A stretch of 64,000 nucleotides of DNA from an uncultured virus (IMG/VR IMGVR_UViG_3300010157_000038) (IMGVR_UViG_3300010157_000038); one strand, 5' to 3'; shown: positions 28,577 through 49,272, counted from the stretch's first letter. Numbers and translations: made by a program. Notes: generated from the sequence alone by a model not told the origin.

Positions 28577-28662
28577 TAAGAGCTAATATATATAGAGACT
28601 ATTAAGTACTGTTGAGAAGCAACACACTGAACTTTAATCGTTAGCCAATAATCAAATACATT

Positions 28663-28953
28663 ATGAGCAATATAAAAATTGTACGTTTAACATCGGGGGA
28701 AGAAATTCTTTGCGATCTAGCTGTTATAGGAGAAAAATATCTACTAAAACTGCCAGCAGTAATTATTCCAACCGGCAATGGAAACATTGGGTTTTCTCAT
28801 TGGCTACCTTATGCAAAAAACGAAGCCGTATGCATTTCATCAAAATACGTAGTCTTCATCGTTGATCCTACGACTCAGCTGATGAATGAATATATAAAAA
28901 TGCATTCAAACCTTATCGTACCACAAGATAAAGAAATTATTGGAGTTGCTTAA
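28663..28953 (+). CDS. Conserved T4-like hypothetical protein
   Basis: IKIVRLTSGEEIL, WLPY; usual hsp20-gp43 position. Confidence 0.75.
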   Translation: MSNIKIVRLTSGEEILCDLAVIGEKYLLKLPAVIIPTGNGNIGFSHWLPYAKNEAVCISSKYVVFIVDPTTQLMNEYIKMHSNLIVPQDKEIIGVA

Positions 28954-28978
28954 AATACTAAGTTAATAGATTCTTTTT

Positions 28979-29015
28979 AGCCAGATGTACTTTAAATTGT
29001 ACATCTGGCTTTTTT
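28979..29015 (+). terminator. Terminator hairpin overlapping a TGTACA -35 box
   Basis: AGCCAGATGTAC / GTACATCTGGCT plus T5. Confidence 0.8.
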
Positions 29016-29037
29016 ATAATTACTGTATTGATATATC

Positions 29038-31629
29038 GTGAAATTCTATACAAATGTAAGTAGATTTGGGTCTGACATTCTTTATCGTGGTTATGATAAT
29101 GGTCGTCAAATCCGTGAAAAGATAAAGTTTAAGCCCACTCTGTTTATTCCTTCAAAGGCCGAAAAGACACAATGGCATTCACTCGATGGAACAAACCTAG
29201 AAGCTTTAAATTTCTCTTCTATGAGAGAGGCAAAAGATTTCACTGAAAAGTACGAAGGTATATCGTCTTTTAATATCTTTGGAAATACTAGATGGACTGC
29301 GCAGTTCATGCGCGAAAGATTTCCTGATGAAATCTACTTTGATAGAAATCTTATTAACGTTGCCGTCTTGGATATTGAAGTAAAGTCTGACGATGGATTT
29401 CCTCATGCCGATCAAGCTCTACACACGATAACAGCAATAAGTATAAAAAATAACATTGATAATATTTTTCACGTCTGGGGAATAAAGGAATATGACCCAG
29501 AGATTTCAATCTTTAAAGGTAAGGTAGATTATCACCAATTCTCTGAAGAAAGTGATATGTTGTTAGATTTTGTTTCCTGGTTTAGTAATGGAACTAATAC
29601 ACCTGATGTAATCACTGGCTGGAATAGCAGAGGATTTGATATTCCTTATTTAATTAATAGAATAATACGTTTATTTGGAGAAGAAACTGCAAAACGTTTA
29701 TCTCCTTGGGGAAAGGTAGAAGAGAAAGAGCAACAAATAAAAGGTAAAGTAATGAAGACGTGGGAGATAACTGGAATCTCTCAACTAGATTATATGGATC
29801 TGTTTAAGAAGTTTACTACACTTACATATGGACAACAAGAATCTTATCGTTTAGGAAATATTGCTCACGTTGTTTTAGGAACGACTAAACTGTCCTACGA
29901 AGAGTATGGAAATTTAAATAATTTATATGAACAGAATTTTCAAAAGTATATTGATTACAATATAACTGACGTAGATCTAGTAGAAAAATTAGAAGATAAA
30001 TTAGGTCTTATAACATTAGTTATGACTCTAGCTTATATCGGCGGAGTAAATTATTCAGATACTTTAGGAACTACTGCAATTTGGGACTCTATCATTTATA
30101 GAGATCTCGCGAGAAAATTTATTGCTCCAAGCATTAATCAGATAAAACCTATTCATAATTATATTGTAAGAGGCGCTGATGTAGGATCCAGGAGTGGTAC
30201 GAGTGGAAAGATTTCAACTTTTGCGGGAGGTTATGTAAAAGATCCAGTAGTAGGGCTTCACAATTGGGTTTGTTCTTTTGACTTAAATTCTCTGTATCCA
30301 AATCTAATTATTCAATATAACATGTCGCCTGAAACGATATGTAAAGAGATAACACCGCACATTAGCCCTGAGTTAATTTTAAATGAGGAAACTTGGACTC
30401 CTGTTTTAGATAACGTTATAACTGCTGCAAATGGTGTTCATTTTAGAACAGATAAAGTTGGAATCATTCCTCGAATCATTAATGAGATCTATGATAAGCG
30501 AGTTATTTTAAAGAAAGCAAAGATTGATGCTCAGAAGAAAAAATCTACTATTCCGAAAGGAGATAAGGTAGAAATTTATAAACTTGAAAGAGATATATCG
30601 CGCTTAGATAATCAACAGACGGCCGTAAAAATCCTTTTAAATTCTTTGTACGGAGCTTTAGGCAATCAATATTTCCGTTACTTTGACGTAGGAGTTGCTG
30701 AGGCAGTAACTATATCTGGCCAAACAGCAATTTGTTGGGCAGAAAAGGCAGTCAATAAGTATTTAAATCAAATTCTTAAAAGTAATAATGTAGATTACGT
30801 AATTGCGATTGATACTGATTCTTTATATGTGAATATGGCCAAGGTTGTAGAAAAGTTTCAACCTAAGAATCCAGTCAAGTTTCTAGATGAGTTTTGCGGT
30901 AAAGGAGTCACTCCTATTCTAAATACCGCTTATGAAAAATTAGCAAAGCAAATGGGCTGTCCTACAAATCGTATGTCAATGAAACGAGAAGCAATTGCTG
31001 ATCGTGGTATCTGGACGGGAAAGAAAAGATACATTTTAAATGTTCATAATAATGAAGGAGTTCAATACGACAAACCCGAGATTAAGATCATGGGAATTGA
31101 AGCCATCAAGTCTTCTACTCCTGAAGTTTGTAGAGATGCAATGAAAGGTCTATTTAAGACTATAATGACTGCAAATGAAGTTGCAGTTCAGAAAGAAATT
31201 GCTGAATTCCGTTCATCATTTGAGCAACTACCACCAGAAAAAATAGCGTTTCCTCGAAGTGTTTCTAATTTAAGTGAATGGTCTTCAGCTTCTACGATAT
31301 ACAAGAAATCAGGAGGAACAGGCACTCCTATTCATGTAAGAGGTTCTTTATTATTTAATCATCATATTAAAAAGAATGGTCTTGAGAAGAAATACGAATT
31401 GATTAAGAACGGTGAGAAAATAAAGTTTACGTACTTAAAGGTTCCAAATGTAATTCAAGAGAATGTTATATCTTTTGTAGATGTATTACCCAAGGAATTG
31501 AATCTTCATAAGTATGTAGATAGAGATAAACAATTTGAGAAAACGTTCCTTGACCCACTGTCTCAGATACTTGAAGCTGTTGGTTGGAGAGCTGAAGGCG
31601 GATCAAATCTAGAAGATTTCTTTTCTTGA
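29038..31629 (+). CDS. gp43: Family B DNA polymerase
   Basis: Exo[35 protein letters not shown] start. Confidence 0.97.
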
Positions 31630-31666
31630 TTTACATTTTAACTAAAACAATATATTCTATTAACAC

Positions 31667-32071
31667 ATGAGCAAAGATTGGCCACAAGACATTAAAGACA
31701 TGCACGATAAGTTTGGAGTGAATCCTGTCGTGCGAAACTTCGATAACGATAAGCTTTTAGCTTTCTTAGGATTTCGAATTAGATTTTTGGAAGAAGAACT
31801 GAATGAATTAAAACTGGCAGATAACGCCGATGATGTAGTTGATGCCCTTGTCGATTTATGTGTTGTCGCAATAGGCACATTAAATGCATTTGATGTTGAT
31901 TCCTATAAAGCTTGGGATGAAGTGCATAAGGCAAACATGTCTAAACAAGTAGGAATTAAAGCGAGTAGACCGAATCCTTTAGGTCTTCCAGATTTGATTA
32001 AGCCAGAGGGATGGATTACTCCTACGCATCAAGAGAATACTGGAATGTTAAGCAGACTGAATGAAGTATAG
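31667..32071 (+). CDS. MazG-like/all-alpha NTP pyrophosphohydrolase (candidate dCTPase)
   Basis: LEEELNE, DVVDALVD, WDEVHKANMSK, DLIKPEGW. Confidence 0.8.
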   Translation: MSKDWPQDIKDMHDKFGVNPVVRNFDNDKLLAFLGFRIRFLEEELNELKLADNADDVVDALVDLCVVAIGTLNAFDVDSYKAWDEVHKANMSKQVGIKASRPNPLGLPDLIKPEGWITPTHQENTGMLSRLNEV

Positions 32072-33014
32072 TCTTACATTGTTTAGATCTATTTTTGATA
32101 ATACGACCTCAAAGCGAATGGACTTTGGGACATGGCAGACCTTTGAGCGTTTACTTTACAGTCTTTCAAAGTTGCCAGGATATAAAGCAAAGCGCGGAGA
32201 GCGAAAAAGATCTTCACCATTAATATCTCCAGCAATTTATAAACCAGATTGCACTAGGTCTAACGCAAATGTGATAGAATGGGCCGGATGGGCGGCACTA
32301 GATGTAGATAATTATGAGGGTAAATTTGAAGATATAATCGAAAAGTATAAAAATAAATATTATTTTGTTTGCTATTCTACAGCATCTTCTACTAAAGAAA
32401 AACCAAAGTTTCGTTTAGTATTTCCATTAAGTTGTCCTGTCTCAAATGAAAAAATTCGACATTTTTGGTACGCGTTAAGCAAAGAATTTAATTCTATTGG
32501 AGACGAACAGGCAAAAGACTTTAGTCGTATGTACTATGTTCCTGCACAATATCCAAATGCAGATAACTTTATATTTACAGTAAAAGGCGAGATTATGAAT
32601 CCTGCTGAGCTAATGTCAAAGCATGAATTCTCTGAAAAGATTGGAACAGGATTCTTAGATAGACTTCCTGATAATATAAAGAAAGAGATTCTTAAGTTTA
32701 GAAAAGAATCAATGTTGAATCGCGATGTGAAATGGAATTCTTATAGAGATTGTCCATTCGTTAATAAGAAACTTATCAATGAGTATAAAAGTATAGCATT
32801 AATAGATGGTTCTGGTAGATACCGAATGATATATAAGCTTATGACGAGTATAGCTTGTAATGCAGTTAAGAATAAGTATGCAATCACTTCTGGAGAAATC
32901 GCTGAAATCATTCGTCAATTGGATATGGATACAGCGAATATATATCAGCAGCGACCTCTCAAGAATGAAGCAGACCGAGCAATAGAATACGCATATAGAC
33001 ACGCTACAGCATGA
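32061..33014 (+). CDS. AEP/PrimPol-like protein
   Basis: AALDVD, YSTASST, KFRLVFPL, KDFSRMYY. Confidence 0.7.
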   Translation: MKYSLTLFRSIFDNTTSKRMDFGTWQTFERLLYSLSKLPGYKAKRGERKRSSPLISPAIYKPDCTRSNANVIEWAGWAALDVDNYEGKFEDIIEKYKNKYYFVCYSTASSTKEKPKFRLVFPLSCPVSNEKIRHFWYALSKEFNSIGDEQAKDFSRMYYVPAQYPNADNFIFTVKGEIMNPAELMSKHEFSEKIGTGFLDRLPDNIKKEILKFRKESMLNRDVKWNSYRDCPFVNKKLINEYKSIALIDGSGRYRMIYKLMTSIACNAVKNKYAITSGEIAEIIRQLDMDTANIYQQRPLKNEADRAIEYAYRHATA

Positions 33015-33646
33015 TCACTACTACTACTACTACTAGCTTTTACCCATTTAATGATGTAGTAATGACGGCTTTACAGAATATTGTCATCATCAATGTAAAA
33101 GAAGATTATTCAGATAAGCTGAATAAGTTTGTGAATAATATCGTAATTGAACAAAAGTTTAAACCTGGCCATCCTAGATATCGAACTAAAGAGATGATCG
33201 AATCAAATTCTGAAGCAGGTATAGGTGGTGAAGAGGCTCTATTATTAACTGGTCACTTTAAAGAGTATTCTCCTGCAGTAGAAAATGCAAAAAGTAATCT
33301 CTCTTACGCAGATCGCCAGATAGACTTAACCTGTGAGGATAGAAATATTCAAGTGAAAACTCTTCACATGAAATCTAAAGCTCCTACTTGGTACATATCT
33401 CAGAGCACGATGGCATCATTGATGAATAGCTCAAAGTATTGTGACGTACTAATAGTGGTTGGATATGAACTATTGAAGGATTCCACCTATCGCTATACTC
33501 CTTTATGGATGATAGACCTAAAGGCACTGGCTGCCCAACAAGGCTACTTTAGAAAGAATGAATATGACAATGGTAGGATAGGTTATGAATTTAATGAATT
33601 TGCTGCAAATAAGCGTAATATTTTGATAGATTTACGCATTTTGTAG
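33011..33646 (+). CDS. Hypothetical protein, possible PD-(D/E)XK nuclease
   Basis: GEEA...ID..(N)IQVKT spacing. Confidence 0.45.
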   Translation: MITTTTTTSFYPFNDVVMTALQNIVIINVKEDYSDKLNKFVNNIVIEQKFKPGHPRYRTKEMIESNSEAGIGGEEALLLTGHFKEYSPAVENAKSNLSYADRQIDLTCEDRNIQVKTLHMKSKAPTWYISQSTMASLMNSSKYCDVLIVVGYELLKDSTYRYTPLWMIDLKALAAQQGYFRKNEYDNGRIGYEFNEFAANKRNILIDLRIL

Positions 33647-33684
33647 TTTACAAACTACAGCTCTAAGTGTAGTATTTTTTCTTT

Positions 33685-34044
33685 ATGAAAGAATCCATTA
33701 AAGTTCTACAAGAATGCGCCGAACTACAGACTAAAAAGTCTAACGATTATCAGAATCCTAATAGTAGGATTCGTCAAGCCGATTATTATCCAAGAGGAAT
33801 TGCTTCTATTCTTGATGTCATTCACGCTAAAACCTTAAGAATGAGATCCGTGTTAGAAGCAATGGAAAATGATCCTAGCTATCAACCTAACTTCGAATCG
33901 ATTGAAGATTCTGCCAAAGATCTTATCAATTATTCATCTTTTATTGTTGCATATATACGCAATGGTATTGACGGTCAACTAGACGATCGCGATTTCTTAA
34001 ATCGTCCAATTAAGAAAAACAATGATAAACCTTCCAAGAGTTAA
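33685..34044 (+). CDS. Nucleotide-modification-associated (Nmad1-like) protein
   Basis: KKSNDY, K.LR, ESIEDSAKDLINY; overlaps gp42. Confidence 0.7.
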   Translation: MKESIKVLQECAELQTKKSNDYQNPNSRIRQADYYPRGIASILDVIHAKTLRMRSVLEAMENDPSYQPNFESIEDSAKDLINYSSFIVAYIRNGIDGQLDDRDFLNRPIKKNNDKPSKS

Positions 34045-34702
34045 AGACATACGTCAGTACTTCCGTGACGAATTAGCAGCAGGAAGATTCGTTACAGATA
34101 AGACGGGCGTAAAAACGATTGAAATGATTGGCGCAAACTTCATTGCCGATGAAGAAGCTATCTTTGGTAAAGTTACCGAATATGCCGATCGTGAAGTTCA
34201 ATGGTATGACTCACTATCTTTAAAAGTAGACGATATTCCTGGCGGTGCTCCGCAGATCTGGAAGCACGTTGCATCTACTAAAGGCGAAATCAATTCTAAT
34301 TATGGCTGGTGTGTATATTCATCTCAGAATCATAAACAATACTGGTCAACTCTTTTAGAATTACTCTCGAATCCCAATAGCCGTAGAGCGATAATGATTT
34401 ACACTCGTCCGACGATGCATCAAGATTATTGTAAAGATGGAATGTCAGACTTCATGTGCACTAATGCAGTACAATATCTTATTCGTGATAATAAGCTTCA
34501 CGCTGTAGTACAGATGCGTAGCAATGATGTTTTATTTGGATATAAAAATGATCGCTATTGGCAATCGATAGTACAAGATCGTTTGCTTCAAGATCTAAAT
34601 ATTAAATCGGAAGAGAACTATCAAAAAGGTGACATTATCTGGAATGTAGGGTCTTTACACGTATATGAAAGACATTTTAACCTTTTAACAAATGAACAGT
34701 AA
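34022..34702 (+). CDS. gp42: dCMP hydroxymethylase
   Basis: DKTGVKTIE, GEINSNYGW, DGMSDFMCTN (catalytic Cys), MRSNDV.FG..ND (cytosine-specifying Asp), GSLHVY, as in T4 gp42. Confidence 0.93.
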   Translation: MINLPRVKDIRQYFRDELAAGRFVTDKTGVKTIEMIGANFIADEEAIFGKVTEYADREVQWYDSLSLKVDDIPGGAPQIWKHVASTKGEINSNYGWCVYSSQNHKQYWSTLLELLSNPNSRRAIMIYTRPTMHQDYCKDGMSDFMCTNAVQYLIRDNKLHAVVQMRSNDVLFGYKNDRYWQSIVQDRLLQDLNIKSEENYQKGDIIWNVGSLHVYERHFNLLTNEQ

Positions 34703-35132
34703 ATGGAAAGGTAGGTATTTAAGTCTTGCTAAAGAAGTTGCTTCATGGTCTAAAGATCCATCACGTAAGATTGGTGCAGTAGCGATTGGAGATCGAGGTC
34801 AGGTGCTTTCTCAAGGATATAACGGTTTTCCTAGAGGAATTGAAGATTCTGAAGAAAGATATAACAACAGAGAAATTAAATATAAGTATGTAGTACATGC
34901 AGAGATGAATGTAATCTATAATGCTTCAATGAATGGAGTATCTCTTCGAGATTCTACAATGTTTATTCATGGACTACCTGCTTGTTCTGAATGCGCAAAA
35001 GGAATGATCCAAGTTGGTTGCAAGCATGTCGTTATGCCTAAAATAGATATTGCTGGAACCTGGAAAGATTCGTGCGAATTAACTCTAAGCTTATTTGAAG
35101 AGGCGAGAGTGACATGGGAGTTTAGCGAATGA
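34692..35132 (+). CDS. cd: dCMP deaminase
   Basis: SKDPS, GYNGFPRG, HAEMN, C..CAK. Confidence 0.92.
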   Translation: MNSKWKGRYLSLAKEVASWSKDPSRKIGAVAIGDRGQVLSQGYNGFPRGIEDSEERYNNREIKYKYVVHAEMNVIYNASMNGVSLRDSTMFIHGLPACSECAKGMIQVGCKHVVMPKIDIAGTWKDSCELTLSLFEEARVTWEFSE

Positions 35133-35500
35133 AAGAGAAAGTTCTAATACTGGGTTCAAATCCTGCTTCCGGTAAAGGTTTTCCACATAAGAATACTACT
35201 ATGAATCGTATCGCTCGATGGGCCGAACGGCTGGAAGTTCCTTACGATTTTGCGAATGTTATACCGTATCACGTGGATAAAGAAGATCCTAAGTTAGTAG
35301 ATCAATCTCGCATATTAGGTATTACTAAAACTTATAAACATATTCTTACATTAGGAAATTTCTCGCATCACACTCTAGAGAAGCTAAATATAACTCATTA
35401 CCCTCTACCGCACCCATCTTCTCGAAATAGAAAATTTAACGATAAGAACTTTGAAGAAGATACTTTAAAAAAACTTATAGCATCTAAATACCTCTCATGA
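35129..35500 (+). CDS. Uracil-DNA-glycosylase-superfamily small protein
   Basis: LGSNP and LPHPSSRN motifs. Confidence 0.65.
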   Translation: MKEKVLILGSNPASGKGFPHKNTTMNRIARWAERLEVPYDFANVIPYHVDKEDPKLVDQSRILGITKTYKHILTLGNFSHHTLEKLNITHYPLPHPSSRNRKFNDKNFEEDTLKKLIASKYLS

Positions 35501-36564
35501 AGATATTAGTCACAGGAATGAATTCAGCACAGTGTATCGAAAACTTCTGGTTAAGGCAGGATCTAGAAGTAGTGAACACTCAGTACGCGCTCATACACGC
35601 TCTTAGAGATATGGGACACACTGTTCATCACACTCATGCGGTAATAGGTGAGAGTTTAGATTCTTACGATAAAGTAATTGCTTTCATTCATAATCCAGCT
35701 GGATTTGCTCGATATCTTTACAATGGTCTCTGGGCCATCAGCCAGAGGCCGGATTGTATACTCGCCATCGATGATTGGCAGGCCGATTCTATCTGGGACG
35801 CAGTCTCAGCTCTCGATAAGGATAACTTATTTCGACCTTACCTTAGAGACATGCAAGAGATCGTGCCGAATGATGTTGAGAAGTATCTACCTCAATTCTT
35901 AGAAGCTCTTGAAACTATCAAAGCGATGAAGAACAAGATGCTGATTGCCGGTTTCTTAGGAGGCGATATCTCAATGATGCTACCTCAGTATCCTAAAGAA
36001 TTATTTCATACTTGGTTACTTAATCCTTATCATTTAAACCGTCGTCCCGAGAACAATTTTACAGGAGATGATTCCGCAGTATTTCTTGATAGTATGCTGA
36101 TTGATGCAAAAGACAAGAAGAGAGAGTGGGTCTTTACGTCATTGATGCAGGGAAAGACCCGTAAGTATCTCGATAGTTTGAATCTCGGTAGCGGATGGAA
36201 GGTCAATATCTATGGAGGACTCAGGGGTCAATTTAAAACTCCTCGGTTGATCGAGGCGGATATGTGTAACGCGTATCAGCAACATTGGGCCGCATTGGTA
36301 CCTAAGTACTATCATTCGGGTTCAGGTTTCTGGCGCCCTCGCGTGTTTCAGGTGGCTGACGCTAATTCTATTCTTGTTGTAGATTCCTCAGAAGGAAAAC
36401 TTTATTCCGAAGCTCACACCGGTATCAATACAAAGGATATAGAAGCTATGGACCTAGGACAACTTATAGATCTCGCGAAGCGCCAGAAAGAAAGTCTATA
36501 CGACAATCAACCTCTGGATAAAAAAATAACTCGCAAACAATTAACTGCCGCTCTAGAATCATGA
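35497..36564 (+). CDS. Putative GT-B glycosyltransferase acting on modified cytosine
   Basis: MKILVTG..ALRDMGHTV N-terminal Rossmann; GSGFWRPRVFQ C-terminal motif; in the gp42 operon. Confidence 0.6.
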   Translation: MKILVTGMNSAQCIENFWLRQDLEVVNTQYALIHALRDMGHTVHHTHAVIGESLDSYDKVIAFIHNPAGFARYLYNGLWAISQRPDCILAIDDWQADSIWDAVSALDKDNLFRPYLRDMQEIVPNDVEKYLPQFLEALETIKAMKNKMLIAGFLGGDISMMLPQYPKELFHTWLLNPYHLNRRPENNFTGDDSAVFLDSMLIDAKDKKREWVFTSLMQGKTRKYLDSLNLGSGWKVNIYGGLRGQFKTPRLIEADMCNAYQQHWAALVPKYYHSGSGFWRPRVFQVADANSILVVDSSEGKLYSEAHTGINTKDIEAMDLGQLIDLAKRQKESLYDNQPLDKKITRKQLTAALES

Positions 36565-37583
36565 AAAAAATAGCAATCATTGGTGCTGGCTGGTACGGTT
36601 GTCACATAGCTTTATCGCTAAAAGAACTTGGCTTTGAGGTCTCGGTGTTCGAAAGAGACTCAGACGTGCTGACTCGAGCGTCCGGAAACAACCAATTCAG
36701 ACTTCATCTTGGATTTCATTACGCAAGAAATTATGACACTCGCATTCAATCTCGTAATGGGTACCAACGATTCGTAGAGCGCTATCCCACGCTAACAAAG
36801 GAATGGGAAAACGGCAATATCTATTCTGTGCCTACACTGGATTCACTCGTAGATTTCAAAACATACAAGTTGATCATGACTGCGAGTGGAATAGAATTTA
36901 ATGAAGTAGCCAATCCACAATGGAGTAAAGGTCTAGCAGGCAGTGTGAGTTGTCAAGAACGAGTGATTCTTACTCAAACCGCAAGAAATTACTTCAAAGA
37001 AAAACTTGGGTCCATACTTAGATTGAACACTCCGGTCACTTCGGTAGATATGGACTCCACTCAATTGAATGACGAAAAATTTGACTTCATCATCGATTGT
37101 ACGTGGGGACATTTTCGTCCTGCGCGTTCTGATACATTTTATGAGTCAACGATACTGCTGTACTACAGCACGAAAGAGAAGTTTCCTGCTTTTACTCTCG
37201 TAGATGGTCCTCTCGCTTCCATATATCCTACAGAAACTCCTGGAATCTATACTCTCTCGAGTGTCATTCATACGCCATTAAAGACCTTTGATAGTTCGGC
37301 AAAAGCTCAGAAATACTTGGATAAAGATTTTAATAAGTACATATTGAATCAGAAGATCGCCGCGATGGAAGAGCATATCTCTCGTTACGTTCCAGATTTT
37401 TCTGATATTTTCAAGTACGAATCTCCGCAGCTAGCGATTAAAACAAAGATAATAGGCGCAACCGACGATCGCAGCTGTTCTGTCAAATGCGAAGGTAAAT
37501 ACATCTCAGTCATGTCTGGCAAGATAGATACGATCTTTCACGGTATGGAACGAGTCTTATATCATATCCAATCTTATGTCTAG
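36561..37583 (+). CDS. FAD-dependent oxidoreductase
   Basis: IIGAGWYG, VFE, ASGNNQFRLHLGFHY, SGKID. Confidence 0.85.
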   Translation: MKKIAIIGAGWYGCHIALSLKELGFEVSVFERDSDVLTRASGNNQFRLHLGFHYARNYDTRIQSRNGYQRFVERYPTLTKEWENGNIYSVPTLDSLVDFKTYKLIMTASGIEFNEVANPQWSKGLAGSVSCQERVILTQTARNYFKEKLGSILRLNTPVTSVDMDSTQLNDEKFDFIIDCTWGHFRPARSDTFYESTILLYYSTKEKFPAFTLVDGPLASIYPTETPGIYTLSSVIHTPLKTFDSSAKAQKYLDKDFNKYILNQKIAAMEEHISRYVPDFSDIFKYESPQLAIKTKIIGATDDRSCSVKCEGKYISVMSGKIDTIFHGMERVLYHIQSYV

Positions 37584-38322
37584 TAATAATAATAATGCAC
37601 TTATAGGTTACACCGGATTCGTTGGGACCACTCTTATGGCTCAAACGAAATTTGATTATTTGTACAGATCCACAAATATCGAAGATATAAAATATAAGAA
37701 TTTTGACACTATAGTCTGCGCAGCAGCACCGGCTCAGAAATGGATAGCAAATAAAGAACCTGAAAAGGATATATCAAACATTAATAAGCTCATAGAATGT
37801 CTTAAGCACGTCAAGTGCAATAAGTTTATTCTTATCAGCACCGTCGACGTGTACAAAACACCAGTGAATGTAGACGAGAATATGGCGATAGATGAGGAAG
37901 GACTTCATCCTTACGGCCTAAACAGAAGACATTTAGAAAAATTTGTAGAAGGAAACTTTAGTAATCATTTTATAGCACGTTTGCCAGGACTCGTCGGTGA
38001 TGGGTTGAAGAAAAATATCATTTACGATTTGAAAAATAATAATAATGTCGATCAGATCAATCACGATAATATATTTCAATTCTATCCTATGAAGAATCTA
38101 TGGAAGGATATACATGAATTTTGCCGCCATACTGATATCATGAATTTTGCCACAGAACCAGTTCAAGTTAGTGATATCGCAGAAAGATGCTTTGGTAAGA
38201 CTCTAAACAATCCAGCAAAGAATAAAGTGTCTTACGACATGAGAACTATCTATGGTTATAAAGGCTATATCTACAATCAAGAGGATGTAATGGCCACGAT
38301 ATCGGCCTACGCGAAATCATGA
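37576..38322 (+). CDS. NAD-dependent epimerase/dehydratase (SDR)
   Basis: GYTGFVG, ISTVDVY, YGLNR (YxxxK variant), RLPGLVG. Confidence 0.85.
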   Translation: MSSNNNNALIGYTGFVGTTLMAQTKFDYLYRSTNIEDIKYKNFDTIVCAAAPAQKWIANKEPEKDISNINKLIECLKHVKCNKFILISTVDVYKTPVNVDENMAIDEEGLHPYGLNRRHLEKFVEGNFSNHFIARLPGLVGDGLKKNIIYDLKNNNNVDQINHDNIFQFYPMKNLWKDIHEFCRHTDIMNFATEPVQVSDIAERCFGKTLNNPAKNKVSYDMRTIYGYKGYIYNQEDVMATISAYAKS

Positions 38323-39113
38323 GTATCTCTATCTCAAATATCGCTTGGGCTGAGAACAATAATGTCGAGATGTGTAAGATCTTAAACGATAATGGTATAA
38401 CACGCATCGATGTAGCTCCAGGAAAACTGTTTCGAGATATAAGCAGTGTAAAGATGGATGAAATTAAAAGAGTAAAGTATTGGTGGAACCAAAGAGGTAT
38501 TGAATTGGTAGGAATGCAATCTTTACTATTCGGCACCACCGGATTGAATCTATTTGCAGAAAATAGCTACTTGATGCTGGATCATTTAGAAAACATATGT
38601 GAAATAGCATCAGGACTCGGTATCACTAAACTTACCTTTGGATCGCCGAAGAATAGAGATCGTTTATCATTTAATGAAGAGCAAGCCAGAAATATCGCAG
38701 CTTTCTTCTTTCGTAGATTAGCCGATATAGCAGATTCTTATGAAGTCGTTATCTGTCTCGAGCCAAACCCTGTAGATTACGGATGTAATTTTATGACAAC
38801 TACTTCAGAGACTGCCGCTATGGTATCCGAAGTCGACAGACCATCAATCAGGCTTCAGCTCGATACGGGTGCTATGTTCATGAACAATGAAAATATAACC
38901 AGCACTATCGAAAAATATTCTAATCTCGTAGGGCATATTCATATATCGGAACCAAAACTAAGTGCTATAAATCCTGAAAATAACTCTCATACAGAAGTTT
39001 CAGAATCTTTAAAAAGGTTTCTGCCTAGTCGCATATATACAATTGAGATGCTCTCAGGGGATCTAATCCAGATCAATAACTCTCTGAAATTCGTAATGAA
39101 ACAATATATATGA
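38319..39113 (+). CDS. Sugar-phosphate isomerase/epimerase (xylose-isomerase-like TIM barrel)
   Basis: ISNIAW, FGSPKNR, CLEPNP, LDTG, HIHISEP, IEM. Confidence 0.85.
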   Translation: MSISISNIAWAENNNVEMCKILNDNGITRIDVAPGKLFRDISSVKMDEIKRVKYWWNQRGIELVGMQSLLFGTTGLNLFAENSYLMLDHLENICEIASGLGITKLTFGSPKNRDRLSFNEEQARNIAAFFFRRLADIADSYEVVICLEPNPVDYGCNFMTTTSETAAMVSEVDRPSIRLQLDTGAMFMNNENITSTIEKYSNLVGHIHISEPKLSAINPENNSHTEVSESLKRFLPSRIYTIEMLSGDLIQINNSLKFVMKQYI

Positions 39114-40309
39114 AATACGCTTCTATAGTACCATTGATTGGTGGCGAGACTATCGCCATGCAGAATGTTTTTGGCTCAAGACCTGAATACATCTTATCGT
39201 ATTCACCTTTTGCAAATAACGACCAACACATCGTAAAGCACTATAATAATGAAGTTCAATACGCGCTCATCGATAAGAACGATAGGGTATCATTGAAGAA
39301 AGGTAAGATCGATGTAGTGAATACCGTATGTCCTTGCGCCGGATTAAGCTCTCTATCTCCTTCGGCAAAATCTGACGCTTCTGCGAACGATTGGATGAGT
39401 GAGACGGCGAAGTACGTACTAGCGAATATTCAACCTCGAGTATTCTGGGGAGAGAATGCACCTCGTTTGGCATCTAAGATGGGTGAACCTGTAGTGGCCA
39501 AACTTCGTAAGATCGGTAAAGAACATGGTTATAGTTTCATGATCTATAAAACCAAGTCAATTCTTCATGGTCTGTCTCAAGTTCGAGATCGTACTTTCTA
39601 TTTCTTTTTTAAAGGCACCAAAGTTCCTGTTTTTAAATTCTACGATCGACCTCACGAGCGTATAGAAGATACTATTCGAAACGCACTAGCTCCAAGTGAC
39701 GATCCGATGAACCAGCTTACGAATAAGAAACTGCCGAGTCAGGATCCTTTCTATCGATTTGTTCTAGAAAGCATCCATAACGGTATATCTCATAGAGAGT
39801 TCCAGAGACAGATCGAGAAGTCTATCGGCGCTATGGAGTATATAGAGAATATGAAATACGATTACCGCGCTGTAGCATCTTGGTTCGATGAAAAAGGAAT
39901 GAACTCTAAGCTCATATCCAGATGCAAGATGATGCAGAAGAAATTGGATTCCGGTGGTAACATCATGAGAAAAATCACCGAGATTCCAAAAGATTATATC
40001 GGAGCGTTTGTTGGTCACTATCCGACAAATCTGACTCATCCTGATGATGACCGCTATCTTACGATTCGCGAATGTCTAGCGATCATGAAACTTCCAAAAG
40101 ATTTTCAACTTCAAGGAGGACTCAAGAACTTGAATCATATATGCCAGAATGTGCCTGTCACTACGGCGCAAGATATGGCCTTTGAGATATCACAATATCT
40201 TGAAGATGATTTATCTATGATGGATACCGATTTTGCAGTTATCAATAATAAGACGAAGAGTTATTCATCAAATTATAAGCCAGAATCTTTAGACAAATTT
40301 TTCACTTAA
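39110..40309 (+). CDS. C5 DNA-cytosine methyltransferase-fold protein with atypical motif I
   Basis: CPCAGLS (IV), GENAP (VI), QVRDR (VIII), RYLTIRE (IX), QNVP (X); motif I reads IVPLIGG. Confidence 0.8.
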   Translation: MKYASIVPLIGGETIAMQNVFGSRPEYILSYSPFANNDQHIVKHYNNEVQYALIDKNDRVSLKKGKIDVVNTVCPCAGLSSLSPSAKSDASANDWMSETAKYVLANIQPRVFWGENAPRLASKMGEPVVAKLRKIGKEHGYSFMIYKTKSILHGLSQVRDRTFYFFFKGTKVPVFKFYDRPHERIEDTIRNALAPSDDPMNQLTNKKLPSQDPFYRFVLESIHNGISHREFQRQIEKSIGAMEYIENMKYDYRAVASWFDEKGMNSKLISRCKMMQKKLDSGGNIMRKITEIPKDYIGAFVGHYPTNLTHPDDDRYLTIRECLAIMKLPKDFQLQGGLKNLNHICQNVPVTTAQDMAFEISQYLEDDLSMMDTDFAVINNKTKSYSSNYKPESLDKFFT

Positions 40310-40366
40310 AATGCAATAAGTTGTACATTCATCAATTTTGTATTATAGTCAGTTTATATATCTTTT

Positions 40367-41413
40367 ATGTCTACACTGCTCGAAAAACTCAAGAAGAACT
40401 CTAAGCTAGAACTTACATCGGTCCTTTCGGAATCGAAAATCTTTAATAAGAAAGACGATATCCCGACCGACGTCCCAATGCTCAATGTTGCTCTCTCCGG
40501 AGACCTAGAGCACGGATTAACGAGTGGACTTACGGTATTAGCCGGTCCCTCAAAGCATTTTAAAACTTCATTCGGATTGATAATGGTTGCTTCATATTTG
40601 AGGCAGTATCCTGATGCGGCAATCCTTTTTTACGATTCAGAATTTGGTTCGCCTTTCGACTATTGGAAGACGTTCGGCATCGACACGAGCAAAGTTATTC
40701 ATAGCCCTATTCGTAATGTTGAAGAATTAAAGTTCGATATCATGAATCAATTGGCCAATATCTCAAAAGGAGATAAGATTATGATCTTTATCGATTCCGT
40801 TGGTAATTTGGCCTCAAAGAAAGAAGTCGAAGACGCGTTGAACGAGAAGTCTGTCGCAGATATGACTCGAGCGAAAGCGTTCAAGAGTCTATTCCGCATG
40901 GTGACTCCATACTTGCATTTGAATGACATCCCTCTGCTGTGTGTCGGTCATACTTATAAAACACAGGATATGTATCCAAAGGATGTTCTATCTGGTGGTA
41001 CCGGTATCTACTACAGCGCCGATACCGTTTGGATCTTAGGTCGTCAGCAGGACAAAGATGCGGAAGGTCTCAATGGTTATAACTTCGTGATCAACGTTGA
41101 TAAGAGCCGTTTTGTTCGCGAAAAGAGTAAAGTTCCAGTCTCAGTATCATTCGCTCGCGGTATAGAAAAATACTCGGGTCTTCTTGATGTCGCATTAGAG
41201 GGAGGCTTTGTAGTAAAACCAAGCATGGGTTGGTACTCTATTAAAGACTCTCAGAAGAAGCATCGCGAAGCGGATACTTACACGAAAGAGTTCTGGGATC
41301 CTATCTTAACTTCTCAAGAGTTTAAAGACTACATTCGTTCCAAGTATAAACTTGGAATGGGTGCGGTCAATCTAAATACACCTTCTATCAAAGATGACGA
41401 CGAAGAAACCTAA
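40367..41413 (+). CDS. uvsX: RecA-like recombinase UvsX
   Basis: AGPSKHFKT, YDSEFG, IDSVGNLASKKE, GGTG. Confidence 0.96.
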   Translation: MSTLLEKLKKNSKLELTSVLSESKIFNKKDDIPTDVPMLNVALSGDLEHGLTSGLTVLAGPSKHFKTSFGLIMVASYLRQYPDAAILFYDSEFGSPFDYWKTFGIDTSKVIHSPIRNVEELKFDIMNQLANISKGDKIMIFIDSVGNLASKKEVEDALNEKSVADMTRAKAFKSLFRMVTPYLHLNDIPLLCVGHTYKTQDMYPKDVLSGGTGIYYSADTVWILGRQQDKDAEGLNGYNFVINVDKSRFVREKSKVPVSVSFARGIEKYSGLLDVALEGGFVVKPSMGWYSIKDSQKKHREADTYTKEFWDPILTSQEFKDYIRSKYKLGMGAVNLNTPSIKDDDEET

Positions 41414-41771
41414 TATAATTACAGAAGACGATTACACTTTAGTAGAAAAGCCAGATTCACTGATGTACTCAGTGAAGATTAAAAAGGGAAAATATACTGA
41501 CGTAATCGTAACTTATGGGGAAGTAAGAATAAAAGCTGATCCAGAAAATGATAAAGCCGATCTCCATTTTAAATATCAAATAATAGAATCACCAAAAAAA
41601 TTAAATGTACAAGAGCTTGAAAAGAGTGTAGAGTTTAATAATCTGCTAGGCGATATTTTAACTTACATCTTGCAAACGGCCTTTGATACTGGAAATTATA
41701 AATTAGGCTCAAAAGAAAAAACAAATGGTATCGAATCTACAACTGACGATTCTGCAGAAACTGATCAATGA
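41394..41771 (+). CDS. Conserved protein in gp40 (head assembly chaperone) position
   Basis: Between uvsX and gp41; GKYTDVIVTYG..FNNLLGDIL. Confidence 0.6.
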   Translation: MTTKKPNIITEDDYTLVEKPDSLMYSVKIKKGKYTDVIVTYGEVRIKADPENDKADLHFKYQIIESPKKLNVQELEKSVEFNNLLGDILTYILQTAFDTGNYKLGSKEKTNGIESTTDDSAETDQ

Positions 41772-43119
41772 TGAAAAGTTCTGTAGAAAGGTTTTACCGT
41801 TTATTAAAACGGAATATTTTGAAGGTGCAAACAAATCGGTCTATAAGGTTATACTGGATTTCATTGGTAAATATAATAAATTACCGACATCTATTTCTCT
41901 TGGAATAGATTTAGATTCTGCAAATCTTTCTGAAGACATATATCCTGAAGCAGTAAAAATCATAGACTCTTTAGGTGAAAATCCTTTAGTTGAAGATCAG
42001 TGGCTGATTGAGCATACTGAAAAGTGGTGCAAAGATCGTGCAGTATTCTTAGCTATCATGGAGTCAATTCAGATTATTGATGGAAAAAGTAAAAATAAAG
42101 TACAAACTGCAATTCCAGATATTCTTCAAAAGGCATTAAGTATTAGTTTTGATGATAGTGTAGGTCACGATTATATTGCTGATGCTGAAGAAAGATTTGA
42201 CTTTTATCACAAAACTGAAGATAAACTTCCGTTTGATCTCGATATGTTTAATACAATAACTAAAGGCGGTGTTCCTAGAAAAACATTGAATATTGCCTTG
42301 GCTGGTACCGGCGTAGGAAAGAGCTTGTTTATGTGTCATGTCGCAGCATCTGCGCTGTCTCAAGGAAAGAATGTTTTGTATATTACACTTGAAATGTCGG
42401 AAGAAAGAATTGCAGAACGAGTAGATGCAAATCTTATGAATGTAGCGATAGACCAATTAGAAATTTTACCTCGTGATACTTTTGAAAATAAAATAACAAA
42501 GATTGCTGCGAATACTACAGGCAAATTAATTATTAAAGAGTATCCGACTGCTTCTGCGCACGCCGGTCATTTTCGTGCGCTTTTAAATGAATTGAAATTA
42601 AAGAAGAATTTTAAACCAGATGTAATCTTTATAGATTATTTAAATATATGTTCTTCTGAAAGAATTAGAGGTTTAAGCGGCGGTGTTAATACATATTCAT
42701 TAGTTAAAGCAATTGCTGAAGAGATTCGTGGACTCGCTGTAGAATTTGATGTTCCTATATTCTCAGCAACTCAAACTACAAGGTCTGGATTTGGCAATAC
42801 TGATGTTGAACTTACTGATACCTCTGAGTCTTTTGGTTTACCTGCTACAGCGGATCTTATGTTTGCATTAATATCTACTGAAGAACTAGAAAAGATAGGG
42901 CAGATCATGGTAAAGCAATTAAAAAATAGATACAATGACGTGGTAAAGAATAAAAGATTTGTTATAGGAGTAGATAGATCTAAGATGAAATTATATGATG
43001 TTGAAGACAAAGCTCAGAATCTTTCTAGCGATTCTAGTGGCGGCCATAAAAAAAATATATCGAAAATAGCTTCAACTTCAGCAGCAAAACATAATTTCAA
43101 TGGATTTCAAGTAGAATAA
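41725..43119 (+). CDS. gp41: Replicative helicase
   Basis: AGTGVGKS, IDYLNIC, ATQTTR, SESFGLPATAD, KQLKNRY. Confidence 0.96.
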   Translation: MVSNLQLTILQKLINDEKFCRKVLPFIKTEYFEGANKSVYKVILDFIGKYNKLPTSISLGIDLDSANLSEDIYPEAVKIIDSLGENPLVEDQWLIEHTEKWCKDRAVFLAIMESIQIIDGKSKNKVQTAIPDILQKALSISFDDSVGHDYIADAEERFDFYHKTEDKLPFDLDMFNTITKGGVPRKTLNIALAGTGVGKSLFMCHVAASALSQGKNVLYITLEMSEERIAERVDANLMNVAIDQLEILPRDTFENKITKIAANTTGKLIIKEYPTASAHAGHFRALLNELKLKKNFKPDVIFIDYLNICSSERIRGLSGGVNTYSLVKAIAEEIRGLAVEFDVPIFSATQTTRSGFGNTDVELTDTSESFGLPATADLMFALISTEELEKIGQIMVKQLKNRYNDVVKNKRFVIGVDRSKMKLYDVEDKAQNLSSDSSGGHKKNISKIASTSAAKHNFNGFQVE

Positions 43120-43141
43120 TAATAATAATAGTAATAATTTT

Positions 43142-43291
43142 ATGTTAATAAATAATAATAGCCAAACAACATTTGCAGATATATCAATAAGCTTTGAGGC
43201 ATACGTTGAAAAAACGATACACACTCACTTAAATCAAATTCAATATGAATTTGATTTCAATATGTTTCGATATACTGTTAGTTTAGATTGA
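43142..43291 (+). CDS. Small hypothetical protein (49 aa)
   Basis: ATG-TGA ORF filling the gap; below the ORF-track cutoff. Confidence 0.35.
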   Translation: MLINNNSQTTFADISISFEAYVEKTIHTHLNQIQYEFDFNMFRYTVSLD

Positions 43292-43375
43292 TAATTAATC
43301 ATTTTAAATTGTACAATTTATATTTACTCGTGTATATTTAATCTTTAAGTAAACAATTAAACTATTAATATTATT

Positions 43376-43987
43376 ATGAGCATGTTCGATTATATAGACT
43401 ACAGAGGTAAGTTACCATGTAATGCGGAAATGTCACTTTTGAAATTAAATGAAGTAGCGGAATGGAATCTTCAAACCAAGGATCTCAAGGATCTCGCAGA
43501 CGTTTTATCAGAATACGTAGTTAAAGCGAAGATACTTTATGTTAAAAAATATAAGGTATCAGAATGGGTAGAAAATGACTCAGAAAGTAATAATCCGATG
43601 GATCGGTTGGGTCATTTTCGTAATGAAGGTGAATATCTCGATAAGTCCGATTATACTGGCGAATTAAATGCTTATACGAGTCTTTATGATATAAATGATA
43701 GATGGGACTGTTGGTTAGAATGGAAGTTTACTTTTGTAAAAGGAAAACTTGTAAAAACTAAATTGTTTAACTTTAAATCAGAATCTAATCAAGCTCGCCT
43801 AGCTGCTCGAGCAGCTCGCCTAGAACGAGACAAGCTATTCCTAGAAGAAATTGCTTATCGAAACAGTGTTTGGTATAATAAGTATCTATTTCATACAATA
43901 GCTTACAGCTGGATTCGTCGTAAAACTAGTTATATATTATATACTACTGGAAATTTTATAGCGTCTTTATCATATAAATTACCTTAA
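43376..43987 (+). CDS. Hypothetical protein
   Basis: MSMFDYI..QTKDL..FVKGKL; preceded by TGTACA-N17-TATATT at 43310. Confidence 0.75.
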   Translation: MSMFDYIDYRGKLPCNAEMSLLKLNEVAEWNLQTKDLKDLADVLSEYVVKAKILYVKKYKVSEWVENDSESNNPMDRLGHFRNEGEYLDKSDYTGELNAYTSLYDINDRWDCWLEWKFTFVKGKLVKTKLFNFKSESNQARLAARAARLERDKLFLEEIAYRNSVWYNKYLFHTIAYSWIRRKTSYILYTTGNFIASLSYKLP

Positions 43988-43994
43988 TAACATC

Positions 43995-44300
43995 ATGGAA
44001 TCAAAAAATTCAAATACCTCAGAGTTTAATCCGTCACATTATCGCTTATTCGATTCAAAAAACTATCGCAAAAAAGTTAAGCGTTTAGTCGAAATGGTAA
44101 AATACTGTCGTAATATTACATCATTTCCTCGCCCAGCTCCACAGCTCAAGTCTAATGCTACTGCAAATGAGAGGGCAAAGCGTATGGACTTTGAAGATCT
44201 TCGTCTATCCTCAAATACTATGCATTGGTTTGCACAGCCATATGAAAGTCAACGGAATAGCCAACAATCTTCGTCGAAAATGCATGAATTCCAAACTTGA
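43995..44300 (+). CDS. Hypothetical protein
   Basis: 101-aa basic ORF in tandem. Confidence 0.55.
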   Translation: MESKNSNTSEFNPSHYRLFDSKNYRKKVKRLVEMVKYCRNITSFPRPAPQLKSNATANERAKRMDFEDLRLSSNTMHWFAQPYESQRNSQQSSSKMHEFQT

Positions 44301-49062: not shown

Positions 49063-49272
49063 ATGCTCTCGTTTAAAGATTTTATCACAGTCAATTATGC
49101 TGGTGGTCAGTCCGAAATGCAGGACTATTATGCAGCAAAGCGCCATCATGGCGTAAACATCCCTGAAGAAAAGACTGAATTAGAGACAAAATTGGAGTCT
49201 CATTGGGAAGATAGCCGTAACAAACAGAAGAAGAACATTCATAGTCTTCATGGAAAGGCTCAGCGACCATGA
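49063..49272 (+). CDS. Small late protein
   Basis: MLSFKDFI N-terminus (capsid-targeting-like). Confidence 0.6.
   Translation: MLSFKDFITVNYAGGQSEMQDYYAAKRHHGVNIPEEKTELETKLESHWEDSRNKQKKNIHSLHGKAQRP

Follow-up and report, generated by a model that had tools for sequence, protein, structure and literature searches.

Bacteriophage T4 encodes gp42, the gp56 dCTPase, a dCMP deaminase and alpha- and beta-glucosyltransferases, and the sugar donor is UDP-glucose of the host. Phages that provide the sugar donor for glycosylating cytosine themselves have already been described (PMC13326640; bioRxiv 10.1101/2023.12.21.572611). Here we describe a locus in a 64,000-nt stretch of DNA from an uncultured virus (IMG/VR IMGVR_UViG_3300010157_000038), referred to as the window, where a T4-type hydroxymethylase and a glycosyltransferase (GT) are accompanied by a three-gene cassette coding for an FAD protein, a short SDR-type protein and a TIM barrel. 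We consider it fairly probable that the operon serves cytosine hypermodification in a T4-like aquatic myovirus, and that the sugar which the GT puts on 5-hydroxymethylcytosine (5hmC, or hmC) comes from the cassette or is tailored by it. The support comes from gene order, folds, the signature residues of gp42 and the comparative pattern.

Nine open reading frames lie on the plus strand at 33685-40309, consecutive ones overlapping by 4 to 23 nt (junctions at 34022/34044, 34692/34702, 35129/35132, 35497/35500, 36561/36564, 37576/37583, 38319/38322 and 39110/39113), just as the first-pass annotation had described its nine overlapping or abutting genes. Its fold calls also hold up, as six domains score above the curated Pfam cut-off (Thymidylat_synt, 53.9 bits; dCMP_cyt_deam_1, 62.6; UDG, PF03167, 26.7 against a cut-off of 24.3; DAO, PF01266, 36.9 against 27.9; AP_endonuc_2, PF01261, 65.3 against 31.1; DNA_methylase, PF00145, 65.2 against 22), the GT is of GT-B fold in an AlphaFold2 model, and relatives lend support to the two calls in the window that fall below the cut-off, DUF1599 for the Nmad1-like protein and Epimerase for the SDR. 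The same annotation had placed all nine genes behind one promoter, and of this claim the motif itself stands: a sigma-70-like TTTACA-N17-TAGTAT (33647..33675, plus strand, 9/12 matches) is found in a 38-nt gap, the only intergenic one, where it overlaps an 8-2-8 palindrome (33642-33659). Promoter-like sites are no commoner within 28500-44000 than in shuffled sequence (50, compared with 57.7 +/- 7.1), and the presence of this one does not by itself argue for a promoter; since the chain of overlapping genes runs on upstream of it (31667-33646), a single promoter is not established.

The proposed gp42 is borne out. The gene at 34022..34702 (+) encodes a dCMP hydroxymethylase of T4 gp42 type that matches PDB 1b49_A at E 3.9e-85 (query 7-222 on chain 8-225) and keeps the signature residues. 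The motif GMSDFMCTN with the catalytic Cys is the same as that of T4 in the alignment (the Cys column holds S in the mutant chain 6a9a), and KND of the window aligns with RND of T4, where the mutant 6l18 has RNN. Opposite this KND, ThyA of B. subtilis (1bko) has PFN, an Asn-to-Asp change (T4 D179), and opposite SDFMC it has ALTPC, a Leu-to-Asp change that places an acidic residue before the Cys. According to passages of PMC13326640, from which the meaning of these positions for a hydroxymethylase is taken, the Asn of ThyA selects dUMP, and a 5-hydroxy-dCMP synthase of RB69 gp48 type is recognised by an Asn where E. coli ThyA has Asp169. The window protein reads RSND with the Asp retained, as in T4 gp42 and in ThyA 1bko, and 5-hydroxycytosine was rejected as its base since Asp, not Asn, stands at the ThyA-D169 position. 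Judged by its residues the protein is an orthodox T4-type dCMP hydroxymethylase, so its product would be 5hm-dCMP and the resulting base 5hmC.

Several small genes lie around gp42. The first of the operon (33685..34044, +) encodes a small helical Nmad1/DUF1599-like protein (phrog_18404, 1.1e-12) that scores 18.8 bits against DUF1599 (PF07659, E 0.0022, cut-off 25); among ten relatives two exceed the cut-off (L029, 32.2; L022, 26.8), one stays below it (L067, 24.1) and seven have no match. The dCMP deaminase (34692..35132, +; Pfam 3.4e-17; phrog_174, 4.9e-37) shows the HAE and CSEC zinc motifs in its translation. It is followed by a 123-aa mini-UDG-superfamily protein (35129..35500, +), present in 30 of the 82 GT loci considered below; one of five relatives passes PF03167 (L036, 27.2), two are below the cut-off and two lack a match, and its Atlas neighbours are virus-only clusters of ~120 aa with PF03167 in 20-74% of members. 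Upstream of the operon, a MazG-type NTP pyrophosphatase (31667..32071, +; Pfam PRA-PH, 1.3e-08; phrog_671 nucleotide pyrophosphohydrolase, 1.6e-17) is a candidate dCTPase of the pathway; its gene occurs in 34 of the 82 loci, and its phage homologues are mostly from Rhizobium and Agrobacterium phages, with one from a Pelagibacter phage. As a search of the window found no dNMP kinase and the dCTPase is a candidate only, full replacement of cytosine stays a supposition.

The GT itself (35497..36564, +, 355 aa) has, as anticipated, a two-Rossmann GT-B fold in its AlphaFold2 model (pLDDT 87.8). T4 BGT is the nearest solved structure, coming first both in Foldseek (1qkj, E 3.5e-07) and in VIA (1c3j, Z 17.1, 291 aligned, rmsd 3.7), where T4 AGT is matched as well (1y6f, Z 15.3) and many GT-B enzymes that do not act on DNA follow just behind BGT (Z 14-16.6). 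Identity to T4 BGT in the structural alignment is 12-14%. No Pfam family matches at E <= 0.01, and a profile of 34 homologues found no GT among PDB sequences; membership of GT63 by sequence was rejected for these reasons. Relatives are encoded in 500 of 535 IMG/VR stretches, and we assign the protein to a large unnamed viral family on this similarity. The survey of neighbourhoods over 82 loci places gp42 with the GT in 70, an Nmad1-like gene in 66 and a C5-methyltransferase-like gene in 48, and phage C48C1 carries TET/JBP-GT-UGM without gp42, so that the GT is associated with hmC made in two different ways. From this gene context, 5hmC in duplex DNA is the candidate acceptor.

The slot immediately behind the GT is variable. 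Across the 73 loci with enough sequence there, it is occupied by UDP-galactopyranose mutase (UGM) in 33, by the C5-methyltransferase-like (MT-like) gene in 23, by other genes in 15 and by the FAD-SDR-TIM trio in two, one of them being the window itself and the other a relative at 74% identity. All eight slot neighbours tested carry the GLF domain (PF03275) of UGM (E 1e-40 to 1e-57), ORF0025 of phiAS4 is a GLF-domain UGM too, and UGM occurs in the slot with or without a GalE-type epimerase. Only two contigs in IMG/VR have the trio arrangement, one being the window, and a single metagenome contig likewise matches at 74%. In the relative L004 the whole operon is syntenic and all ORFs are intact, despite saturation of synonymous sites and a GC content of 50% versus 36%.

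The first cassette gene (36561..37583, +; Pfam DAO, 4e-09) encodes a DAO-family FAD dehydrogenase/oxidase whose AlphaFold2 model (pLDDT 91.8) has the two-domain GR2 fold. VIA matches it to GlpD (2qcu, Z 27.9, 320 aligned) and to glycine oxidase (4ysh, Z 27.5), and the enzymes closest to it in fold are oxidases or dehydrogenases of glycerol-3-phosphate, amines, opines or 2-hydroxy acids rather than of nucleotide sugars. It was also considered as a UGM and rejected, having no GLF (PF03275) match and a BLASTP E of 0.03 with the UGM of L007. The second gene (37576..38322, +) encodes a short SDR-type NAD(P)-binding protein with a GYTGFVG motif and always adjoins the FAD gene within the cassette; against Epimerase (PF01370, cut-off 20.9) the window protein scores 18.7, its orthologue in L004 21.1 and the fused protein of L201 31.4. 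The third (38319..39113, +; AP_endonuc_2, 8.8e-18) is a xylose-isomerase-like TIM barrel of the ketose 3-epimerase/IolO kind, matching tagatose 3-epimerase in the PDB (2.9e-06); the NCBIfam models for IolO (9.4e-13) and for psicose 3-epimerase (3e-10) match as well, though well short of their equivalog cut-offs.

The trio is also found elsewhere. Among 68 bacterial loci it is complete in 48, contiguous and in the same order in 46, and the parts are fused as SDR-TIM-FAD in one 852-aa ORF of a jumbo-phage contig (L201) and as SDR-TIM in one 507-aa ORF (L189); because of this contiguous co-occurrence and these fusions, the trio is predicted to be one functional unit, a conserved cassette. The bacterial copies belong to polysaccharide clusters and those of other viruses to glycan islands, with GT2, RgpF, rmlABCD, GT11, GT92, DegT and FkbM genes as neighbours, and a scan of the flanking genes at four bacterial and five viral loci put the cassette among glycan genes each time. 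No gp42 is near it in the 68 bacterial loci, and among 77 viral FAD loci only the two of the window lineage have one, which suggests that its native job is glycan synthesis, not DNA.

This distribution favours an alternative that we regard as unlikely, in which the GT uses an ordinary host nucleotide sugar and the cassette, perhaps together with a ManC-like gene (19616-20707), serves a non-DNA glycan on the host surface or on virion proteins and just happens to lie within the operon. Since 23 of 73 loci have no sugar gene in the slot, donors of the host can serve this family of GTs, and pelagimyophage glycosyltransferases are read as surface-modifying in passages of PMC7029224. What speaks against such a division of labour is the position of the cassette, which is translationally coupled between the GT and MT-like genes (overlaps of 4-8 nt) in the slot where relatives have UGM, in an operon without any other glycosyltransferase, and in an arrangement that has persisted in a relative whose synonymous sites are saturated.

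It is more doubtful still that the cassette edits the sugar on DNA, oxidising, epimerising and reducing glucosyl- or galactosyl-hmC in place, with no donor made. A DAO-type FAD enzyme acting on a hypermodified base in DNA has been reported (PaMx11 gp47; PMC8989533), and its chain 8z79 matches the FAD model (Z 18.3), but at rank 34, the better matches being small-molecule oxidases (Z 26-28). Editing would also suit a cassette with no nucleotidyltransferase among its domain matches; the same cassette, however, occurs in bacteria and jumbo phages without glycosylated DNA, and so accepts a non-DNA substrate there. That the GT-B protein instead glycosylates protein, lipid or a small molecule, leaving bare 5hmC partly 5-methylated by the MT-like enzyme, is very improbable, for although the fold is silent on the acceptor, non-DNA enzymes score close to BGT and neither Pfam nor PDB sequences link the protein to GT63, two independent hmC sources (gp42 in most GT loci, TET/JBP in C48C1) accompany it and the T4 enzymes are matched, BGT first in both fold searches.

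The conserved last gene of the operon (39110..40309, +; Pfam DNA_methylase, 9e-18) encodes the C5-cytosine methyltransferase-like enzyme. The AdoMet motif of C5-methyltransferases has the canonical form FxGxG; motif I here is PLIGG family-wide. PLIGG, CPCAGLS, WGEN.P, QVR.R.FYFFW and CQNVP are kept in 35 distinct family members, and PCAGLS aligns with PCQGFS of DNMT1; the catalytic PC, the ENV-like and the QxRxR motifs are thereby all represented. The enzyme is conserved and apparently active, and a genome with hmC throughout offers it no obvious task, which counts against the reading favoured here. As complete hmC replacement would leave no free C5, it might act on hmC or glycosyl-hmC, and we entertain, as a long shot, that the cassette provides a sugar never seen on a nucleobase while the Cys chemistry of the MT-like enzyme adds to the modified base. 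If true, this would mean a second, unknown modification layer.

Returning to the operon as a cytosine-hypermodification pathway, the T4-type hydroxymethylase would make 5hm-dCMP, the nucleotide pool is probably biased with the aid of the MazG-type pyrophosphatase and the Nmad1-like protein, and phosphorylation and replication would bring 5hmC into DNA, while the dCMP deaminase would feed dTMP synthesis as in T4. The GT-B transferase would then attach a sugar to the hydroxymethyl group. Where relatives have UGM or no sugar gene, this lineage has the cassette, and we infer that its three enzymes (an FAD dehydrogenase of GlpD/DAO type, the short SDR and a TIM barrel of ketose-3-epimerase type) convert a common sugar precursor to a less usual stereoisomer through oxidation to a keto-sugar, epimerisation beside the keto group and re-reduction. 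This stereoisomer would be the sugar that the GT transfers, editing after transfer being less likely. The first-pass annotation had likewise proposed that the phage builds its own unusual nucleotide sugar and puts it on hmC, giving an undescribed base. This is supported in part: gp42, the GT-B fold, the sugar and glycan pathways of the trio elsewhere and the UGM slot speak for it, whereas a nucleotide sugar as the product of the trio (a sugar phosphate would be another candidate), its destination on DNA and the newness of the adduct are conjectural; the idea as such was already in print. Similar reaction logic is known from mycobacterial DprE1/DprE2, an oxidise-then-reduce sugar epimerisation on lipid-linked ribose, and from the erythritol route, where EryB (GlpD-like FAD) and EryC (xylose-isomerase-like TIM) act on a tetritol phosphate. 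In both, oxidation by an FAD dehydrogenase yields a keto intermediate, and a TIM-barrel enzyme or reductase resets the stereochemistry; the likeness to the cassette lies in this logic.

Among viral systems, the metavirome C5-MT/TET/GT clusters (passages of bioRxiv 10.1101/2023.12.21.572611) resemble the locus in that the donor of a DNA GT comes from an adjacent sugar-converting enzyme, whereas their hmC is made on DNA, by methylation plus oxidation by TET, and a single epimerase acts as partner; the terms FAD, isomerase and mutase gave no hits in the text of that preprint without its supplements. Rhizobium phage RL38J1 and Pootjesviridae, as described in part of PMC13326640, share a phage sugar-converting flavoenzyme beside DNA GTs, but theirs is a UGM (GLF) and the base 5hoC, while the window FAD protein is of DAO/GlpD type with no GLF. 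The arabinosyl-5-hydroxycytosine system of RB69 and DLP3, with its phage-encoded UDP-arabinose route, is alike in clustering a thymidylate-synthase homologue, GT-B transferases and sugar-donor genes; according to the same passages, their 5hoC comes from a flavin-using homologue with Asn at ThyA-D169, where the window keeps Asp, and their donor genes are an isomerase, a phosphatase, a kinase and a uridylyltransferase in place of FAD-SDR-TIM. With T4 the locus shares the same type of dCMP hydroxymethylase (E 3.9e-85), the dCMP deaminase, a MazG-type pyrophosphatase and a GT-B whose nearest structure is BGT. Unlike T4, its GT is only 12-14% identical to BGT and without a Pfam family, and its genes form one tight operon, which also takes in three genes of sugar pathways and one for a C5-methyltransferase-like enzyme.

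We read the operon between 33685 and 40309 as a set of genes that makes hydroxymethylcytosine (hmC), places a sugar on it and supplies that sugar, and we consider this reading as a whole to stand at somewhat better than even odds. In the proposed pathway, gp42 makes 5hm-dCMP and the dCMP deaminase feeds dTMP synthesis, both steps being either shown here or based on established T4 biochemistry. A MazG-type enzyme would lower dCTP, a glycosyltransferase (GT) would glycosylate hmC on DNA, and a three-gene cassette would provide the sugar through oxidation, epimerisation beside a keto group, and reduction. Taken alone, the formation and glycosylation of hmC is very probable, while service of the cassette in that glycosylation is only slightly favoured.

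The PHROG matches of the window are those of a T4-like myovirus and include terminase, portal, major head, sheath and tube proteins, a gp43-type polymerase, clamp and clamp loader, UvsX/UvsY/UvsW-type proteins, a gp41-type helicase, a gp46/47-type nuclease, a gp55-type sigma factor, RegA, Hsp20, PhoH, and ribonucleotide reductase. The GT finds its best phage match in Phage C48C1, which is classed in Kyanoviridae, and we infer an aquatic phage akin to the cyano- or pelagi-myophages. Nine plus-strand ORFs lie between polymerase and uvsX, each overlapping its neighbour by 4 to 23 nt, which bears out the nine-gene chain of the first-pass annotation. The overlapping chain begins upstream of the operon with a MazG-type pyrophosphatase (31667), a primase-like gene and, directly before the operon, a 211-aa ORF (33011-33646, plus strand) that has no match in Pfam, PHROG or NCBIfam, is assigned to no family, and has a homologue in only 5 of 82 GT loci. 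The sole gap in the chain is 38 nt long (33647-33684) and contains TTTACA-N17-TAGTAT, previously taken for the operon promoter; the motif is present, but promoter-like sites in the operon region are no commoner than in shuffled sequences (50 versus 57.7 +/- 7.1), and thus the motif alone is not evidence of a promoter. A perfect 8-2-8 palindrome, TGTAGTTT-AC-AAACTACA (33642-33659), shares bases with the upstream ORF's stop codon and with the -35-like hexamer, and may act as an operator or form an RNA hairpin.

Judging from the sequence of gp42 (34022..34702, plus strand), the base of this phage is 5hmC. This thymidylate-synthase homologue matches the solved T4 dCMP hydroxymethylase over nearly its full length (E 3.9e-85), and the signature residues seen in the alignments confirm that it had been named correctly. 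The stretch GMSDFMCTN, including the catalytic Cys, is the same in the window and in T4; the dUMP-selecting Asn of ThyA is replaced by Asp (KND in the query, RND in T4, PFN in B. subtilis ThyA), as is the Leu that precedes the Cys in ThyA, and the Asp of RSND is kept. According to a recent study (PMC13326640, 2026), many phage thymidylate-synthase homologues make 5-hydroxy-dCMP and carry Asn at the position of the RSND Asp; the window gp42 lacks that Asn, so its predicted product is 5hm-dCMP and not 5-hydroxy-dCMP. The dCMP deaminase of the operon is clear (Pfam 3.4e-17, phrog_174 4.9e-37), and the window also encodes a 110-aa protein (24632-24964, plus strand) with a dATP/dGTP diphosphohydrolase N-terminal domain (PF18909, E 6.1e-35; phrog_801). 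The PF18909 family is tied to purine-pool editing in some phages. Homologues of the MazG protein belong mostly to Rhizobium and Agrobacterium phages, and glycosylated cytosine is reported for RL38J1, a Rhizobium phage of Pootjesviridae (PMC13326640). The lack of a dNMP kinase in the window counts against our reading, and so does the C5-methyltransferase-like enzyme (39110..40309, plus strand), which is conserved, has methyltransferase motifs, seems to be active and finds no explanation in an hmC genome.

The GT is a 355-aa protein (35497..36564, plus strand) that has no match in Pfam, NCBIfam or PDB sequences; a profile search of PDB sequences returned only OYE2 (E 0.2). Its AlphaFold2 model, built from 34 homologues (pLDDT 87.8), has a GT-B fold, as the first-pass annotation had supposed, and T4 beta-glucosyltransferase takes first rank both in Foldseek (1qkj, E 3.5e-07) and in a structure search independent of it (1c3j, Z 17.1, 291 aligned, rmsd 3.7). 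The model scores Z 15.3 against T4 alpha-glucosyltransferase and Z 13.7 against the glycosyltransferase of phage HY126. Since other GT-B enzymes come close behind T4 beta-glucosyltransferase (Z 14-16.6), the modeled fold can be called certain and the acceptor cannot.

The family to which this protein belongs is very large. At E <= 0.001 a protein search gave 166 homologues, a Pfam domain being present in none of the 120 that were listed, and a relative is encoded in 500 of 535 candidate IMG/VR stretches. Among the 82 GT loci examined (the best 80 from IMG/VR together with phages C48C1 and FBB1), the gene is accompanied by gp42 in 70, an Nmad1-like gene in 66, a C5-methyltransferase-like gene in 48, dCMP deaminase in 43, MazG in 34, and a mini-UDG in 30. 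The locus of Phage C48C1 (L001, 6586-10033) has no gp42; a TET/JBP dioxygenase, the GT homologue and a UDP-galactopyranose mutase (UGM) are consecutive there, all annotated as hypothetical proteins, and their order suggests a post-replicative hmC route joined to the same GT family. This association with two independent hmC routes (gp42 and TET/JBP) is the best evidence that the acceptor is hmC in DNA.

The gene position directly after the GT is filled in different ways. For 73 IMG/VR loci the sequence extends at least 1.2 kb beyond the GT, and the gene that follows it there is a UGM in 33, a methyltransferase-like gene in 23, the FAD gene of the cassette in two, and something else in 15. All eight neighbours scanned in this slot are GLF-domain mutases (E 1e-40 to 1e-57); the UGM found there is short (for example in loci L007, L021 and L033), and 19 of the 82 GT loci also contain a GalE-type epimerase. 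Within cultured Straboviridae, a UGM lies directly upstream of the GT homologue in Erwinia phage FBB1 (L002, 4889-7062) and Aeromonas phage phiAS4 (L231, 2895-5077). The pairing of GT and UGM predicts a hexofuranosyl cytosine adduct; a full-text literature search found no paper on galactofuranosyl-hmC.

The two cassette-bearing loci are the window's own 28-kb fragment (G001, identical to part of the window) and a relative with 74% GT identity (L004). The relative keeps the gene order from polymerase to gp41 exactly, and its identity to the window is 77% for FAD, 74% for GT, 63% for the methyltransferase, 55% for SDR and 47% for the TIM barrel, most genes lying at 63-80%. All of its ORFs are intact in spite of saturated synonymous sites and a shift in GC, which argues for selection on all genes. 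The GC content is about 50% in this relative, the closest with the same operon, and 36% in the window, an unusually large composition shift between syntenic phages. Elsewhere in the window, GC is higher around two ORFs (49269-51370, plus strand), of which the first has a match in phrog_395 'cytidyltransferase' (E 7.7e-44) and none in Pfam or NCBIfam. Scanning metagenomes with the GT turned up one locus, which equals the relative in its 74% identity and its operon layout, and scanning viruses with the TIM protein turned up nothing beyond the window's own fragment. Protein searches yielded about ten GT clusters (55-80% identical) and nine FAD clusters (57-79% identical), and in three GT/FAD cluster pairs the longest contig is equal in size (15249, 26924, 27693).

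The cassette consists of an FAD oxidoreductase (36561..37583), an SDR (37576..38322) and a TIM barrel (38319..39113), all on the plus strand. That the FAD protein is a divergent UGM was rejected, as it has no GLF domain, reaches only E 0.03 in BLASTP against the UGM of a relative, and has a DAO/GlpD-like fold. Its model (pLDDT 91.8) belongs to the DAO-family fold and lies nearest to glycerol-3-phosphate dehydrogenase (Z 27.9), a Bordetella structural-genomics protein (27.7) and glycine oxidase (27.5), followed by sarcosine oxidases, opine dehydrogenase and L-2-hydroxyglutarate dehydrogenase. These nearest folds of the modeled enzyme are not nucleotide-sugar enzymes, which is a point against our reading, and the lack of a nucleotidyltransferase in the operon is another. 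The SDR is a short protein with weak matches, and the closest matches of the TIM barrel are 5-keto-L-gluconate epimerase and the psicose and tagatose 3-epimerases, with scores far below every equivalog cut-off. A mannose-1-phosphate guanylyltransferase (ManC)-like gene (19616-20707, plus strand; TIGR01479 E 3.4e-83 over the guanylyltransferase part only; Pfam NTP_transferase and ManC beta-helix), flanked by the gp46-type nuclease on one side and a large 'peptidase' on the other, could supply a GDP-hexose; co-occurrence lends no support to its place in the pathway, the gene being absent from five of five UGM-type relative contigs (only one at least 90% complete) and from every cassette locus in bacteria and in other viruses.

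The FAD, SDR and TIM genes form one unit outside the window too. The FAD protein was found in 68 bacterial genome loci, mostly of Acetobacteraceae, Rhizobiales and roseobacters and also of Alteromonas, Thauera, planctomycetes and a verrucomicrobium; all three genes are present in 48, of which 46 have them side by side in an unchanged order. Cultured carriers of the cassette include Neorhizobium alkalisoli and Alteromonas confluentis (L083, L110). They also occur together in 32 of 77 viral FAD loci, including jumbo-phage and giant-virus contigs, and are naturally fused as SDR-TIM-FAD in one 852-aa ORF (L201, 7432-9990, on a 312-kb viral contig) and as SDR-TIM in one 507-aa ORF (L189, 10024-11547). 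The neighbours are GT2, RgpF-type and GT4 transferases, rmlABCD and a pyruvyl transferase in four bacterial loci scanned, and GT2, GT11, GT92, RgpF, DegT aminotransferase, GNAT, FkbM and C-methyltransferases in five viral ones. The home context of the cassette is glycan synthesis, which counts against our reading; gp42 is found in only two of the 77 viral FAD loci, both of the window lineage. In 41 of the 68 bacterial loci the cassette adjoins a 650-940-aa protein of no Pfam or NCBIfam family (L110 4342-7008; L123 2649-5471; L083 4899-6857), which may be a transferase using the cassette product. A tree of 128 FAD proteins groups the window with its relative (support 100) within a set in which 54 of the 58 rows are bacterial, apart from the clades that contain 60 of the 66 viral rows; the tree is rooted at midpoint only and hence gives no direction of transfer.

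Sugars on its cytosines protect phage DNA against both restriction enzymes and Cas nucleases, and hosts need new counter-measures for every new sugar. A family of transferases resembling T4 beta-glucosyltransferase with a swappable donor-supply slot, which holds nothing, a mutase with or without epimerase, or the FAD-SDR-TIM cassette, turns the diversification of phage DNA sugars into a testable, modular question. The uncharacterised cassette is frequent both in polysaccharide loci of proteobacteria (mostly alphaproteobacteria) and in contigs of jumbo phages and giant viruses, and the window links it to a nucleoside adduct measurable by LC-MS, a simple read-out that could reveal the cassette product. 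Systems of this kind are already known, since two earlier studies describe phage-encoded donor supply for cytosine glycosylation, namely the UDP-arabinose genes of RB69 and DLP3 and the mutase of RL38J1 (PMC13326640), and metavirome clusters with epimerase-dependent GTs (bioRxiv 10.1101/2023.12.21.572611). A full-text literature search found no paper on the FAD/TIM cassette with hmC, and the supplements of either study may list the GT family. Compared with these systems, what is new here is a very large unnamed GT family, the pattern of its slot, and the occupation of that slot, as a third option, by the FAD-SDR-TIM cassette.
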